This document shows positions 6,567-22,946 of a DNA stretch of 24,846 bases, piece by piece; the first letter of the stretch is position 1; every line of letters begins with the position of its first letter. Both the position numbers and the translations under genes were made by a program. The notes under the pieces were generated by a model. That model ran no database searches. It was not told where the DNA came from and worked only from the letters and a program-made list of their open reading frames with translations. The DNA is from a virus: the UHGV virus genome UHGV-1599541; one strand, given 5' to 3'.

Positions 6567-6583
6567 CCTGCTCTAATAAATTT
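6567..6583 (+). promoter_or_regulatory. C1 repressor operator-like 17-mer (Op51-like) upstream of c4/icd/ant
   Basis: CCTGCTCTAATAAATTT matches the asymmetric P1 C1 operator consensus ATTGCTCTAATAAATTT at 15/17; near-identical copies at 8231-8247 and 22930-22946. Confidence 0.6.
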
Positions 6584-8230: not shown

Positions 8231-8247
8231 TTTGCTCTAATAAATTT
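8231..8247 (+). promoter_or_regulatory. C1 operator-like 17-mer (Op53-like) upstream of kilA-repL
   Basis: TTTGCTCTAATAAATTT, 16/17 to the C1 operator consensus; about 70 bp upstream of the kilA ATG. Confidence 0.6.
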
Positions 8248-14851: not shown

Positions 14852-16579
14852 TTACTCAGAGTCACCGGCATCAATCGTGTTACCGGTCAGGAAGTTAATC
14901 CCGCCATTTTTGGCCATAGTCAGAGTTACACGGGTGAAGTAGTCAGCGCCGTTACGTGGGTGCATATCGTTGATAGCCGACCCCCACAGAGTGGTTCGGT
15001 TGACCAGTGCCGGGGTGGTTGGATGCTGGAATGGGATAGCTGGAACTGCATCACCAGTCACAAAACCCGCTTTGCCCGGATTTTCATCACGGACGTAGCA
15101 CAGCACATCCATCGGGCTGAACTGAATACCTTCGGCGGTCAGGTTCGTGCAAATACCTTCTGGTACTTCGAACACTTTGACGTTACCGAACAGAGTGCCA
15201 ATGTAGTGAACGTATGGTGTCTGGATATAATCTTCTGCTGGCTGGAAGAAATCCTTCGGCAACTGTTTGAAGAAAGATGCCGCATCAGCACCGGCATACA
15301 TACCCATCGCACCAGAAGATCGAACGCGCTCAATAATGCCGCGATATACCGTCTGGAATTTGCCGCGAATGATCGTTGCCCACACATCAAAGGACTGGTT
15401 AACCGGCAGCGCAATGTCAAAGGAGTCGGTAGCCAGAGTTCGCCAGATCATGATACGAAGACGAAGCATATCCTGTTCATGGGACAGGTATTCCTTCAGG
15501 GTGCGGAACTGTAGGGAACCGAGGTCAAGACCAAATTCACGCTGTGCTTCATACGCCGCCTGTACCGTGTGCTCAGCCGCGATGACGAACTGGCTTGGGA
15601 ACAGGGTGTAACTCTTCATTTCGTGGTTGATAAGTGGGATCAGCTCAGGAGCGGCTTCAATATTGATCTCCGCCTCAATGGCGATCTCTGTACCTTTATC
15701 AGGCGCTTTGGAGAACGACAGGGCAATCTGTCCAATGTTGTAGTTCAGAGAGCAGGTAACAGTGATTTGTTCGCCAGCTTTGTTATTGAATGTGTGAAGC
15801 AGAGTACCGGAGCCGTTATCAACAACAGACTTAATACGGTTAACGTAGATATTTGTACGGCCTTTGCGGATCGGGACATTCTGGCCTTCAAAGTCTTCCA
15901 TCTTGAAGGTTGCGGTTTTGCTGGTGCCATCGGAACTTGCCACCAGCACATAGCGGCGGCGCAGTTGGCTGTACACACCAACAGATTGCATATCCAGAAC
16001 ATCACCCGAAGCATAAGAACCAAAAGAGGAACCCGCTACGTTAAAGATTTCATAGATTTCGGACTTGTCACGCGTAACCGGAATGAAGGTACACGCATCA
16101 GCGGTAGCTGCCCCCAACTGAACAGGCAGGATCATCGCGAGGAATAAAGGCAGACGCATAACACCGTCAGAAACGCTCATCATCTCTGCTGCGACGGATT
16201 CCAGCATCGCTTTATTAGTGGCATCCATGCTATTGCGGGTGGACTCAATCAGGCAGTTTTCCAGCGTCTGGTGGCAGGAGGCCAGAATTTCCGGACGCGG
16301 CATAGATTTATGTGCTGCGGCGTAGTCAGCCAGTGCACTTGCCCACGCTGTAGCGATTTGAGCGGTGGCATTATCAGAGATACCCGCAAAAATTGGGTCT
16401 TTACGTGCAGCTTCAAGGATAGATGCGGCACGCGCGGCATCATCTTTAATGAATTGGTTATCAGTACCGAACTGCGCAGTGCTTGCCCAGCCAAGCACAG
16501 CTTTAGAGCGTTTTGCGATATCTGCAATACGATTCTGGTATTCGCGTAAGTTACTCAATTTACTCTTCCTTAAACACAA
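14852..16579 (-). CDS. Putative major head protein precursor (about 570 aa); start codon uncertain
   Basis: ORF track starts at a TTG (16579); a better-placed TTG at 16558-16556 follows SD AAGGAAG by 6 nt. Size about 62 kDa and position upstream of sheath fit the P1 gene 23 slot. Confidence 0.5.
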   Translation of the reverse strand: MCLRKSKLSNLREYQNRIADIAKRSKAVLGWASTAQFGTDNQFIKDDAARAASILEAARKDPIFAGISDNATAQIATAWASALADYAAAHKSMPRPEILASCHQTLENCLIESTRNSMDATNKAMLESVAAEMMSVSDGVMRLPLFLAMILPVQLGAATADACTFIPVTRDKSEIYEIFNVAGSSFGSYASGDVLDMQSVGVYSQLRRRYVLVASSDGTSKTATFKMEDFEGQNVPIRKGRTNIYVNRIKSVVDNGSGTLLHTFNNKAGEQITVTCSLNYNIGQIALSFSKAPDKGTEIAIEAEINIEAAPELIPLINHEMKSYTLFPSQFVIAAEHTVQAAYEAQREFGLDLGSLQFRTLKEYLSHEQDMLRLRIMIWRTLATDSFDIALPVNQSFDVWATIIRGKFQTVYRGIIERVRSSGAMGMYAGADAASFFKQLPKDFFQPAEDYIQTPYVHYIGTLFGNVKVFEVPEGICTNLTAEGIQFSPMDVLCYVRDENPGKAGFVTGDAVPAIPFQHPTTPALVNRTTLWGSAINDMHPRNGADYFTRVTLTMAKNGGINFLTGNTIDAGDSE

Positions 16580-16694
16580 GGCACTTGTGTGAATCCCTTT
16601 TCGGAAGAGATTTTATTGAAAGTCACTTGTTGACTTTCTCGTGACAAGCAATTTTTTTATTTTTTTCGGGAGTAGGGGAGGAAGGTAAAATCCA

Positions 16695-20695: not shown

Positions 20696-20720
20696 GAAAA
20701 ACCGGCCAACAAAGCCGGTT
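20696..20720 (-). terminator. Rho-independent terminator at the end of the minus-strand operon, facing oriR
   Basis: Stem ACCGGC / GCCGGT with loop CAACAAA; on the minus strand the hairpin is followed by UUUU. Confidence 0.55.
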
Positions 20721-20734
20721 GGAAGGAAGCCGTA

Positions 20735-21127
20735 TTATTCTACGCTTTCGATGAGAAGGCCATGTTCATAACATTTAAGCTCATCGCCTTCGTACAGGAA
20801 TTGGTATCCAATACCACCATTTTCATGGACATTAGGGAATAACTCATAACTCACTGAAGAGCAAATCACACCAATGCAGCGATCAACGCCCTCTCGTTCT
20901 TCAGTGCTGAAAAAATCCTCTTCGGTAAGAACATGAGTACATTGCTCATCAGCATAGGTCGGAAATACATGCTCGATGCAATCCGGGTGTTTTAAACCAA
21001 GCTGATCGGCAAGCTCGAAAGCATGACGGTATTGTTCAGATCCTGGCTTGCCAACAGTGATGTGCTCAATTTTGTAGATTGAAGTCGCTTTGTTGATAGT
21101 TTGCTTTACTGTTACTTTATCAGACAT
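20735..21127 (-). CDS. Hypothetical protein (130 aa), last gene of the spanin-containing operon
   Basis: ORF track; SD AAGGGA 6 nt upstream; the o-spanin-like stop TAA lies just upstream. No recognisable domain. Confidence 0.55.
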   Translation of the reverse strand: MSDKVTVKQTINKATSIYKIEHITVGKPGSEQYRHAFELADQLGLKHPDCIEHVFPTYADEQCTHVLTEEDFFSTEEREGVDRCIGVICSSVSYELFPNVHENGGIGYQFLYEGDELKCYEHGLLIESVE

Positions 21128-21138
21128 AAAAATCCCTT

Positions 21139-21471
21139 TTAGTTACCGCTGATAGCGCGGTTGTAATCATTAACGTTGCGATTCTTCCTGTTAATCCCCA
21201 TCAGCATCGTTTCTGTATCAAGGATATAGGCTGGCAGATCATCAAAATATTCACTGCTAAACTCTGGCATCCTGCACATAAATGCACTTTTGGGGGCAGG
21301 GTGGTTAACCTTTGTCGGCGTCGGCGTTAAATTCGCTGATCGACTCCCGGAGCAACCGCTGAGTGTCAGCAGGAATGCGCTGGCGAACATTACCCGCCGC
21401 AACCAGTTGTTTCTGAACTTCAGCTTTTCGTTCCATTTGCCTGTCAGCATATTTGGCTTGTTCTGATTCAT
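21139..21471 (-). CDS. o-spanin-like outer-membrane lipoprotein (Rz1-type), overlapping the upstream gene in another frame
   Basis: Lipobox LTLSGC; mature part about 70 aa, Pro-rich (LTPTPTKVNHPAPK) with one Cys; the start is either ATG 21471 (SD AGGAAGTG) or internal Met at 21390. Overlaps 21305-21727 by 86-167 bp. Confidence 0.55.
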   Translation of the reverse strand: MNQNKPNMLTGKWNEKLKFRNNWLRRVMFASAFLLTLSGCSGSRSANLTPTPTKVNHPAPKSAFMCRMPEFSSEYFDDLPAYILDTETMLMGINRKNRNVNDYNRAISGN

Positions 21472-21727
21472 TTTTCACTTCCTGGCTGTGAAAATGTTGA
21501 TCCGCTTTATTCATCGTCTCAATGGTCTGGTTAAGATCACTGATTGACTTATCGCGCTCCTTAACAGCCTGATCAAGGCTGCCAATTTTTTCCAAGGCTT
21601 GCTTTAACTGATAACGTTCCCATGCAAACCCAGCACCAACAAGTGCGCAAATCAGGACAAGAACACCAGTAACAGCAAGTTTCTCCTTCAAAGACAAAGC
21701 TGTTTTTAACGTTGAAAAAAACGACAT
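21305..21727 (-). CDS. i-spanin-like protein (Rz-type): N-terminal TM helix plus periplasmic coiled coil (140 aa)
   Basis: SD AGGAGGAA 5 nt upstream; TM LAVTGVLVLICALVGAGFAW; charged helical C-terminal region; classic overlapped arrangement with the lipoprotein gene. Confidence 0.6.
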   Translation of the reverse strand: MSFFSTLKTALSLKEKLAVTGVLVLICALVGAGFAWERYQLKQALEKIGSLDQAVKERDKSISDLNQTIETMNKADQHFHSQEVKNESEQAKYADRQMERKAEVQKQLVAAGNVRQRIPADTQRLLRESISEFNADADKG

Positions 21728-21766: not shown

Positions 21767-22555
21767 TTAAAGTGTCGCCTTGTTTAATTCATCAAGAACA
21801 GAATCAGGAACCAAAGCTGCGACTGCGCTGGCGGTGCTGGCCTTATTTGCTGATGCTTCCGCCAGCGCGGTTCCGATAGCATGGTTATAAGCAGTTATGG
21901 CTACGTTGGCGCTTTCATTCGCTCGTTCATACTGCTGTTGTAACGCAGTTGTGGACGCTGTTGTCTGGTTGAAAACAACCCCAAACTGTTCAGTTGCTAC
22001 TTTCAGAGATTCAATTTGCTCTTCTGTTAGTGCTGGTGGGGGAGTGACTGCGCCGCCACCTGAATCAGAGCCTGACGAGCTTCCTGAGCCTGTGTTAAGG
22101 GTCTGGTTAATGTCCCCCATAGCAGCGACTAAACTCGACGTATTAAGCGCATTTACAGCGTCCTCAAGCGATTTCGTTGTAGTCGCGTCACCAATGGCAA
22201 TAGAGATCGGCAGTTCTGATACTTCTCGCTCATTAGCACGGCAGTAAACATCCCAACCAATATCGAGTTGAAGGAGCATTGACAGATCAGCATAACCAGC
22301 CAACAGGTCCGCGTGCTGAGTTGCCAGCCCTCCAATATTCGTTAAACCGGTTGCGGTTGTTCTGATCGTTGAAACATAGCTGGTAATAGTGTCGGGATAG
22401 ACAATTGTATCCAGAATTAATCCGGTCAATTCTTCTGCAAGCAGTTTTGCTGTGTTAGCACTGTTTCGTGCCGATGTTATGGCACCAGGTGTTTTCATCC
22501 CACCGGCGGCGGCCAATTTTTTATATGCGGATAACTGGTAGTCTTTTTCCAGCAT
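21767..22555 (-). CDS. Hypothetical Ala/Thr/Ser-rich protein with Gly/Ser linker (262 aa)
   Basis: ORF track ORF 21767-22612; the start is placed at ATG 22555 because of SD TAGGAG 6 nt upstream and no overlap with the preceding gene. Contains GSGSSSGSDSGGG linker. Confidence 0.5.
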   Translation of the reverse strand: MLEKDYQLSAYKKLAAAGGMKTPGAITSARNSANTAKLLAEELTGLILDTIVYPDTITSYVSTIRTTATGLTNIGGLATQHADLLAGYADLSMLLQLDIGWDVYCRANEREVSELPISIAIGDATTTKSLEDAVNALNTSSLVAAMGDINQTLNTGSGSSSGSDSGGGAVTPPPALTEEQIESLKVATEQFGVVFNQTTASTTALQQQYERANESANVAITAYNHAIGTALAEASANKASTASAVAALVPDSVLDELNKATL

Positions 22556-22563
22556 GATATCTC

Positions 22564-22848
22564 CTAACTTACCTGAACCAGGCCGTCTCCTGACGCTACG
22601 GTAGAGCCGCATGAAACAGGGTCACCAACGCATACGACCCCTTTACCATTGACGGTAAACCATGCCCTGGTTGATATAGCTTGCCCACCGTGCGTACTGT
22701 TTCCATCGGTATGCTGTGCATATTGCTTACCATCAACTAACACTTCGACTCCGTTGACTTTAAGTAGTGGTTCACTCTCTACAGGAGGCCTGGATGGGAA
22801 TCCTCCGTGCCCCGAACAAATGCTGTCTTTTGTTGCAATACTTGCCAC
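22564..22848 (-). CDS. Small Gly/Cys/His-rich protein (94 aa), possibly PAAR-like; GTG start
   Basis: ORF track; repeated motifs resembling PAAR-type spike-tip proteins (CSGHGG, VNGVEVLVDG, FTVNGKGVVCVGDPVSCG). Weak, unverified similarity. Confidence 0.45.
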   Translation of the reverse strand: MASIATKDSICSGHGGFPSRPPVESEPLLKVNGVEVLVDGKQYAQHTDGNSTHGGQAISTRAWFTVNGKGVVCVGDPVSCGSTVASGDGLVQVS

Positions 22849-22929: not shown

Positions 22930-22946
22930 ATTGCTCTAATAAATAT
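22930..22946 (+). promoter_or_regulatory. C1 operator-like 17-mer in a divergent promoter region
   Basis: ATTGCTCTAATAAATAT, 16/17 to the C1 operator consensus; lies between the minus-strand operon start (22848) and the plus-strand small-ORF start (23018). Confidence 0.6.

Follow-up and report, generated by a model that had tools for sequence, protein, structure and literature searches.

The two genes between positions 21,767 and 22,848 of the window (the whole stretch of DNA analysed, 24,846 nucleotides) very likely encode the two distal-most parts of a P1-type tail puncturing device, a spike-tip cap (UpfC) and a helical tripod attached to it (UpfB), followed by a predicted spanin pair. The window is from a P1-like phage-plasmid (Punavirus) with a DNA identity to P1 of about 96%, although it is not P1 itself, and the genes considered here correspond to P1 upfC, upfB, ppfA, mlp, and upfA. 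Both open reading frames described in the original prediction are genuine and lie on the minus strand where it had placed them. The features referred to in the text are as follows:

upfC, 22564..22848, minus strand: 94 aa from a GTG start; PAAR-repeat spike-tip protein, homologue of T4 gp5.4
upfB, 21767..22555, minus strand: 262 aa from ATG 22555; all-helical, published as the spike-tip "tripod"
UpfB linker, 22025..22090, minus strand: flexible, Gly/Ser/Pro-rich, residues about 156-177, connecting the N-terminal bundle to the C-terminal helical hairpin
ppfA, 21305..21727, minus strand: Rz-like protein, predicted to be the i-spanin; membrane anchor at the N-terminus, coiled part in the periplasm
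mlp, 21139..21471, minus strand: Rz1-like lipoprotein, predicted to be the o-spanin; the gene shares the 3' part of ppfA but is read in a different frame
upfA, 20735..21127, minus strand: last gene of the cluster; PHROG 1453 (function unknown), 125/130 residues identical to P1 UpfA
Hairpin followed by a T run, 20700..20720, minus strand: resembles an intrinsic terminator, 3' of upfA
C1 repressor operator (P1 Op68/Odmt), 22930..22946, plus strand: between the divergent genes upfC and uhr, 82 nt upstream of the upfC start

The identity, fold, metal ligands, and virion position of UpfC are established through the solved structure of a protein that is 98% identical to it. The repeated motifs from which the 94-aa protein had been read as PAAR-like are present (VNG at residues 31 and 66, CxG at residues 11 and 73), and that reading is correct at the level of sequence, predicted fold, solved structure, and literature; so is the suggestion of a virion tip, UpfC being a spike tip of the T4 gp5.4 type. 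The description of the protein as Gly/Cys/His-rich holds for Gly (14 of 94 residues, 15%) but is overstated for Cys and His, since there are only three of each; Val (13) and Ser (11) are also abundant. In phmmer searches, UpfC matched the protein named UpfC in P1 (9vyi_A) with 92 of 94 residues identical (E 2.5e-60), T4 gp5.4 (5iv5/4ku0) with an E value of about 1e-7, and the T6SS protein VCA0105 (4jiv_D) with an E value of 3e-4. It also matched PHROG 281, "PAAR motif" (E 2e-30). Against the Pfam PAAR family PF05488, UpfC scored 26.5 bits (E 7e-6), 0.5 bit short of the gathering cut-off of 27, and all 17 of the 17 aligned UpfC family members matched this family (best E 2.4e-21). A literal PAAR tetrapeptide is absent from UpfC and likewise from the aligned part of T4 gp5.4; the PAAR family admits copies of "similar sequence" in place of Pro-Ala-Ala-Arg.

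The AF2 model of UpfC (pLDDT 95.4, all beta) has the cone-shaped fold of three beta-hairpins typical of PAAR proteins and is superposable on solved members of the family, with a Foldseek probability of 1.00 in each case: P1 UpfC (9vyi; TM 0.96, rmsd 0.7 A), T4 gp5.4 (4ku0_D; TM 0.92), VCA0105 (4jiv_D; TM 0.88), and c1882 (4jiw_D; TM 0.87). His14, His46, His53, and Cys80 are invariant in 17 UpfC homologues and, by alignment, coincide with the three-His, one-Cys site of T4 gp5.4, an apical tetrahedral metal site. The P1 protein (PDB 9vyi chain A; P1_gp066) has the same length and matching gene neighbours, and differs by two conservative substitutions (V71I and S86A). T4 gp5.4 (4ku0_D, 5iv5) is similarly a single-domain PAAR cone of about 95 aa that caps the gp5 beta-helix trimer and is non-essential for plaques, but it shares only 27% identity with UpfC and is encoded within the baseplate cluster, next to gene 5; in addition, T4 gp5 has a lysozyme domain, whereas P1 gp5 does not. 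The T6SS proteins VCA0105 and c1882 also sharpen a trimeric beta-helical spike (VgrG), but they are 14-22% identical to UpfC, belong to a bacterial secretion machine, and may carry effector extensions, whereas UpfC sits on a phage tail and consists of the PAAR domain alone.

Cryo-EM of P1 places monomeric UpfC on trimeric gp5 (PDB 9vyi). By extension, one copy of UpfC would cap the trimeric gp5 beta-helix spike, converting its blunt end to a sharp conical point, with a metal ion bound by His14, His46, His53, and Cys80 holding the apex together. Upon sheath contraction, the UpfC tip would then be the first part of the virion to be driven into the outer membrane.

The start of upfB differs from that in the P1 RefSeq annotation. 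The longest reading encodes 281 aa from ATG 22612, the length annotated for P1. However, the upfC stop codon is overlapped by an AGGAG Shine-Dalgarno sequence whose end is 5 nt before ATG 22555, and UpfB homologues are 240-265 aa long and all begin with MLEKDYQL or MLDKDYQL. Because of this spacing and the length and N-terminus of the homologues, the 262-aa reading is preferred, and the RefSeq-style start at 22612 is probably over-extended. P1 UpfB is 94.6% identical over the 262-aa reading (tblastn), or 262/281 over the RefSeq 281-aa reading, and likewise follows upfC; substitutions between the P1 protein and that in the window concentrate in the C-terminal helical hairpin, at residues about 179-217 of the 262-aa form.

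UpfB had been described as a low-complexity protein with no recognisable domain. The first of these terms applies to residues about 156-177 only (GSGSSSGSDSGGGAVTPPP); elsewhere, helical bundles are predicted with confidence, 113 residues reaching a pLDDT of 90 or more. The second is accurate with respect to Pfam, which gave no match to UpfB and, for 13 homologues searched at E values up to 10, returned only scattered chance matches, but UpfB belongs to PHROG 1559 (E 3e-136, residues 1-261), and a published assignment places the protein in the spike-tip tripod. The AF2 model (pLDDT 79) is all alpha and consists of two modules joined by the Gly/Ser/Pro linker, for which pLDDT falls below 50 at residues 158-171. 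The length of this linker differs among close homologues, and a poly-Pro stretch takes its place in the homologue from locus L004. A profile search with UpfB recovered 82 clusters, whose full-length members are single-domain proteins of about 236-265 aa and whose other members are shorter fragments. Near the C-terminus, UpfB has an invariant motif, TALAEAS...ST.SA..ALVP. A sequence search of the PDB with UpfB returned nothing. Fold searches were uninformative: the matches retrieved from the PDB (PilJ, trypanosome receptors, and BAR domains) were generic helical bundles (Foldseek E >= 0.02, TM < 0.3), and in BFVD the best match had an E value of 4e-3 and a TM of 0.32 and was accompanied by weak matches to DUF7217 phage proteins; both sets were rejected.

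The identification of UpfB as the tripod is moderately supported. A cryo-EM study published in 2026 assigned UpfB to a tripod anchored on the P1 spike tip by fitting an AlphaFold3 model to medium-resolution density, in which no atomic model was built (PMC12810830). The reported stoichiometry differs, with three trimers of UpfB in one paper versus three copies in another. With its two modules and a flexible Gly/Ser/Pro hinge, UpfB may bind the UpfC cone on its faces and so make up the three-legged structure observed under the P1 baseplate.

Comparative evidence independent of the cryo-EM fit points to the same association. In the loci examined, a PAAR gene was always adjacent to or near the genes for UpfB homologues down to 22% identity. 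It lies immediately upstream of homologues with 22-31% identity in loci L003, L006, L007/L008, and L009 and in phage D6, and the PAAR stop overlaps the UpfB start in L003, L006, L007, and D6; in L004 and L010, it lies 1.5-2.6 kb upstream. Outside P1-like phages, no UpfB homologue was found in phage records, and T4 has none. This gene-order conservation suggests, as a new observation, that the PAAR tip has a dedicated partner in UpfB, even in phages where identity has fallen to 22%. The distance from the tail and baseplate genes that was remarked on in the original prediction is a trait of P1 genome organisation from which D6 and the metagenomic relatives differ. In D6 and the metagenomic loci, the PAAR-UpfB pair lies within or directly after the baseplate or spike genes, directly before the major capsid and sheath genes, or both. 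In P1, the plasmid rep/par module lies between the upfC/upfB cluster and the capsid and sheath genes, which is not the case in D6, and the pair therefore looks misplaced in P1.

Several alternative readings were considered. First, UpfB could be an assembly factor or chaperone that folds UpfC or loads it onto gp5, rather than a stable part of the virion, with the tripod density belonging to another protein. PAAR proteins of T6SSs are often accompanied by cognate helical chaperones or adaptors, and the tight linkage of UpfB to PAAR genes would be equally expected of a dedicated chaperone. The tripod density, moreover, was fitted only with a predicted model, and the main text of the LC-MS/MS paper on P1 virions does not mention UpfB. 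That absence is weak evidence, however, because UpfC, gp5, and gp26 were likewise missed. A three-fold object of about the right size is located exactly on the UpfC tip. Furthermore, since plaques are unaffected by deletion of upfC, selection would hardly favour a chaperone dedicated to UpfC, whereas UpfB conservation extends down to 22% identity. A chaperone role is thus considered unlikely.

Second, UpfB might be a T6SS-like cargo carried on the PAAR tip that would reach the outer membrane or periplasm before the DNA does and act there on the envelope. Possible actions include insertion of its distal helical loops, sensing of contact, and local membrane remodelling. This is likewise improbable. 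If true, the recurrence of lysis genes after the PAAR-UpfB pair in distant relatives would hint at a shared envelope-directed module instead of synteny alone.

Third, the downstream genes raise the question of a joint function with PpfA and Mlp, in which UpfB, with or without UpfC, would take part in lysis or target the host envelope; this is the other role that had been put forward. PpfA matches PHROG 89, "Rz-like spanin" (E 7e-24), and has a hydrophobic segment at residues 17-35 with a Kyte-Doolittle mean of 2.48. Mlp has the lipobox LTLSGC and matches PHROG 30284 and PHROG 456, "Rz-like spanin". The P1 annotation of Mlp is "membrane lipoprotein precursor", and ppfA has been named in the literature as a predicted P1 spanin gene. 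PpfA and Mlp are thus predicted to form an i-spanin/o-spanin pair. Like lambda Rz/Rz1, they would combine an N-terminal anchor and a helical periplasmic domain (PpfA) with a small lipoprotein (Mlp) whose gene overlaps ppfA in another frame; unlike lambda Rz/Rz1, the P1 genes are overlapped rather than fully embedded and are unlinked from the P1 holin and endolysin genes.

A shared lysis function would fit the common orientation of the genes, the short gaps between them, and the lack of a terminator until after upfA. It would also fit the lysis genes that follow UpfB homologues in other phages: L006 and L007 have Rz-like genes, D6 an overlapped gene pair, and L009 genes for both endolysin and holin. 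Against this, UpfC and UpfB have no signal peptide, lipobox, or transmembrane segment (maximum Kyte-Doolittle mean over 19 residues of 0.76 for UpfC and 0.97 for UpfB versus that of the PpfA anchor), and UpfC is physically in the baseplate. In L004 and L010, capsid and sheath genes directly follow UpfB and there is no spanin, so that the linkage to PAAR persists where the linkage to lysis genes does not; it is the PAAR gene that is the constant partner of UpfB. Finally, the P1 annotators predict separate ppfA promoters inside upfB. A lysis or host-envelope function for UpfC and UpfB is accordingly very unlikely. More plausibly, UpfC and UpfB belong to the spike tip while PpfA and Mlp act at lysis, and the adjacency of the latter to upfB would reflect inherited gene order rather than shared function.

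The proposal that the 94-aa protein is instead a PAAR protein of the T6SS type, or else a "moron" of bacterial origin on the plasmid prophage, draws on the category of PHROG 281 ("moron, auxiliary metabolic gene and host takeover") and on database names such as "alanine racemase" and "Zn-binding protein involved in type VI secretion", but these database names are annotation transfer errors, UpfC has no effector extension, no T6SS genes are present in the window, UpfC relatives follow phage spike genes (Phage_base_V / PHROG 430) in L004, L009, and L010, and the solved P1 baseplate structure, in which UpfC is seen on the tail spike, already refutes the proposal, which is rejected here as having next to no chance of being correct.

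The original prediction also assumed co-transcription with the spanin genes. The layout is compatible with co-transcription of the five genes upfC-upfB-ppfA-mlp-upfA: the gaps are 8 nt from the upfC stop to the upfB start, 39 nt from the upfB stop to the ppfA start, and 11 nt from mlp to upfA, the ppfA and mlp genes overlap, and from upfC to repA the minus strand has a single terminator candidate, that at 20720..20700, after upfA. No convincing promoter of either the sigma-70 or the P1 late type was found upstream of upfC. A scan for sigma-70 promoters returned none there. The P1 late-promoter pattern, derived from the annotated LPdar and defined as AAGTNACTT, 4 nt, and then a -10 hexamer, matched exactly before gene 23 (16610-16628) but was absent upstream of upfC when up to two mismatches were allowed; the best candidate by eye has four mismatches. 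The C1 operator upstream of upfC matches the consensus at 16 of 17 positions, where 0.18 matches would be expected by chance in the window, and the P1 record annotates Op68/Odmt as the operator of the rightward Pdmt promoter.

The finding on UpfC and UpfB is real but ordinary, in that a spike-tip cap with a helical attachment is already known. The annotation of the P1 reference record gives the similarity of UpfC to T4 gp5.4, a link that was repeated with HHpred in 2022; cryo-EM showed UpfC on the spike in 2025-2026, and the tip tripod was attributed to UpfB in 2026. There is consequently little here that is new to the field, the additions being the corrected UpfB start, the comparative PAAR-UpfB linkage, and the reason for the apparent misplacement of the pair in P1.

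Published deletions and CRISPRi show that upfB and upfC are non-essential. Since phage lacking either gene still make plaques, UpfC and UpfB are accessory proteins, which most likely benefit envelope penetration in its efficiency or host range, as T4 gp5.4 does on deep-rough LPS hosts. By CRISPRi, ppfA and mlp are also non-essential for plaques, as is upfA. Both UpfC and UpfB are retained despite being dispensable in the laboratory.

Both ORFs of the original prediction are present on the minus strand, at the predicted coordinates. The 3-kb stretch around them is 96% identical to positions 62615-65615 of phage P1 (NC_005856), and equally so to P7, RCS47, SJ46, and other Punavirus records, and the whole window aligns with P1 41483-67061. 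With gene names taken from the RCS47 annotation, the window runs from sit, pmgB, tub, pmgC, the immI region (c4/icd/ant), kilA, repL, the tail tube gene, and pmgG through 21, 22 (sheath), 23 (major capsid), parB, parA, and repA/oriR to upfA, mlp, ppfA, upfB, and upfC, followed by the divergent uhr, hrdC, and dmt. The two ORFs are therefore the P1 genes upfC and upfB:

22564..22848, minus strand: upfC, GTG start, 94 aa
21767..22555, minus strand: upfB, 262 aa

UpfC is almost certainly a PAAR-type spike tip that caps the gp5 trimer. The protein contains 15% Gly, three Cys, and three His, with two VNG and two CxG motifs, and its best sequence match in the PDB is the P1 baseplate chain 9vyi_A, itself named UpfC (E 2.5e-60, 92/94 residues identical), followed by a baseplate chain of Klebsiella phage KP1 then T4 gp5.4 (5iv5, 4ku0; E about 1e-7), and the Vibrio type VI secretion PAAR protein VCA0105 (4jiv_D, E 3e-4). 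UpfC alone scores 26.5 bits on PF05488, 0.5 bit below the Pfam cut-off, and all 17 aligned family members match that family (best E 2.4e-21); PHROG 281, 'PAAR motif', matches UpfC at E 2e-30. An AlphaFold2 model built from 15 homologues is all beta (pLDDT 95.4) and superposes on the P1 baseplate chain, T4 gp5.4, VCA0105, and c1882 with TM scores of 0.96, 0.92, 0.88, and 0.87, respectively. [quoted passage not shown] The PAAR tetrapeptide as such occurs neither in UpfC nor in the aligned part of gp5.4. The kinship with T4 had been noted before: the P1 record gives UpfC as 31% identical to T4 ORF 5.4, HHpred matched gp5.4 to UpfC (Gonzales et al. 2022), and a preprint on T4 gp5.4 names the two as the only tail-protein pair common to T4 and P1 by BLAST. 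Two cryo-EM studies place a UpfC monomer on the trimeric gp5 needle. The PAAR-like reading of the 94-aa protein thus holds on the PDB matches, the family-wide PF05488 matches, and the superpositions, and its placement at the virion tip on the cryo-EM studies and the near identity to 9vyi. Gonzales et al. (2022) found that deletion of upfC causes no plaque defect and did not detect UpfC in virions by LC-MS/MS. It should be noted that many UpfC homologues carry the database name 'alanine racemase', apparently a propagated mis-annotation, and that PHROG 281 is filed under 'moron/auxiliary metabolic gene' although the family is a structural tail protein.

UpfB is probably the tripod of the spike tip. 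PMC12810830 (2026, PLoS Pathogens) describes it as a novel 'tripod', formed by three trimers that are anchored to the tip of the spike. The assignment comes from fitting an AlphaFold3 trimer into density of medium resolution, with no atomic model built; a later paper reports three copies of UpfB bound to UpfC, and the two papers thus differ in stoichiometry. The paper on P1 virion proteomics (Gonzales et al. 2022) does not mention UpfB in its main text; its authors constructed an in-frame upfB deletion, and a CRISPRi study found upfB non-essential and cites the deletion work as in agreement. UpfB had no Pfam match, even over 13 homologues at E up to 10, and no match in a PDB sequence search; it matches PHROG 1559, whose function is unannotated, at E 3e-136. 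In its all-helical AlphaFold2 model (pLDDT 79, pTM 0.76), the N-terminal part (residues 24-155 or so) folds into a bundle and residues of about 178-236 into a long helical hairpin at the C-terminus; the stretch between them (about 156-177, pLDDT below 50) is a disordered linker of Gly, Ser, and Pro. The linker differs in length between close homologues and is replaced by a poly-proline stretch in the L004 homologue; what is conserved is therefore a flexible hinge at this place rather than its composition. Foldseek returned nothing meaningful against the PDB (best E 0.02, TM below 0.3) or BFVD (best E 4e-3, TM 0.32). Profile searching across 1.84 billion representatives recovered only 82 clusters, whose full-length members have a single domain and a length of about 236-265 aa, the remainder being shorter fragments. 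Among isolated phages, UpfB occurs only in P1-like ones (Punavirus, Cronobacter JK004, Escherichia D6).

The gene neighbourhoods of UpfB homologues 22-31% identical to that of the window were compared (loci designated L):

L003: wedge, tail, and baseplate proteins, PAAR, UpfB (PAAR stop and UpfB start overlapping), a 103-aa protein carrying a membrane anchor and a coiled segment, major capsid
L009: spike (Phage_base_V), PAAR, UpfB, a 101-aa protein, GH108 endolysin, holin-like protein
L006 and L007/L008: PAAR, UpfB, Rz-like protein (overlapped by a small gene in L007), Rep3 or ParAB plasmid genes
L004 and L010: spike and PAAR 1.5-2.6 kb upstream of UpfB, major capsid and sheath directly after it
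Phage D6 (L012): PAAR, UpfB (overlapping), an overlapped small-gene pair, two genes, gene 23, sheath; partition genes on the opposite side

What stays with UpfB throughout these loci is the PAAR gene, which argues for a physical partnership without recourse to the cryo-EM fit. The relatives share the order baseplate/spike, PAAR, UpfB, then in many cases lysis genes, and finally capsid and sheath. In P1-type genomes, oriR-repA-incA-parA-parB separates upfA from gene 23, and the spike genes are located elsewhere, which explains why the upfC/upfB pair seems isolated from the tail genes. The order of the block is kept across P1-like phage-plasmids though their plasmid modules differ (Rep3, ParAB, StbA). 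Lysis genes recur after the spike-PAAR-UpfB block in L003, L006, L007, L009, and D6 as Rz-like proteins, an overlapped small-gene pair, or a GH108 endolysin plus holin, with capsid and sheath genes next. A PHROG 3108 protein of 165-173 aa is encoded between the PAAR gene and UpfB in L004 (4522-5043) and L010 (2420-2917). One relative (L007, 435-1246) carries a TacAT-like toxin-antitoxin pair just upstream of PAAR-UpfB, made up of a TacA1-like antitoxin gene and a GNAT acetyltransferase gene with a weak match.

The capping of the gp5 trimer by a single UpfC to form a metal-stabilised point can be regarded as established, and this point would be the first to meet the outer membrane on sheath contraction. 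UpfB, as reported with moderate support, would join the UpfC cone as a three-legged helical structure. By analogy with T4 gp5.4, which T4 can assemble without but requires for fitness and for infection of deep-rough LPS mutants (gp5.4 preprint), both proteins may be accessory, making envelope penetration more efficient or widening its host range. The main points on upfC and upfB have all been published earlier and are thus already known.

Two readings of upfB exist, 281 aa from ATG 22612, as in the P1 RefSeq record, and 262 aa from ATG 22555. An AGGAG Shine-Dalgarno sequence, overlapping the stop codon of upfC, ends 5 nt upstream of ATG 22555, and UpfB homologues are all 240-265 aa and begin with MLEKDYQL or MLDKDYQL; the 262-aa length, as originally predicted, is therefore the better call. 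The RefSeq-style start (22553-22612, minus strand), with its 49-nt overlap with upfC, is probably over-extended. Gaps are short (upfC-upfB, 8 nt; upfB-ppfA, 39 nt; ppfA and mlp overlapping; mlp-upfA, 11 nt) and the single minus-strand terminator candidate (20720..20700) lies past upfA, making one upfC-upfB-ppfA-mlp-upfA transcription unit plausible; the P1 record predicts two internal sigma-70 promoters for ppfA within upfB. A promoter scan upstream of upfC found no sigma-70-like promoter, and the P1 late-promoter pattern, derived from LPdar, was absent there at up to two mismatches (four at best by eye). The regulatory matches in the window are:

6567-6583, plus strand: C1-repressor operator match, near the immI region
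8231-8247, plus strand: C1 operator match, before kilA/repL
22930-22946, plus strand: C1 operator match (16/17), 82 nt upstream of upfC, between upfC and uhr
16610-16628, minus strand: exact late-promoter match (AAGTGACTT, TCAA, TAAAAT), about 30 nt ahead of the ORF of gene 23 (major capsid, 14852..16579)

The three C1 matches carry one or two mismatches to ATTGCTCTAATAAATTT, with 0.18 expected by chance; the P1 annotation assigns the one at 22930-22946 to the rightward dmt promoter.

Co-transcription with spanin genes had suggested, as the alternative to a virion tip or injection component, a lysis or host-envelope function for UpfC and UpfB. The neighbours do resemble spanins: PpfA carries a strongly hydrophobic anchor near its N-terminus (residues 17-35, KD 2.48) and is matched by Rz-like PHROGs at E 7e-24, the lipobox LTLSGC is present in Mlp, mlp overlaps the 3' part of ppfA, and the literature lists both as predicted P1 spanins, each non-essential for plaques in the CRISPRi study. 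Both UpfB and UpfC lack signal peptides and membrane segments, so nothing links them functionally to lysis, and such a role is not supported. PMC9025707 labels ppfA the o-spanin and mlp the i-spanin; the sequences say the opposite, with the lipobox in Mlp and the N-terminal membrane anchor in PpfA. The annotated Mlp (110 aa) has an unusually long 27-residue stretch (MFASAFLLTLSGC) ahead of Met28, suggesting that an internal mlp start may be the real one.
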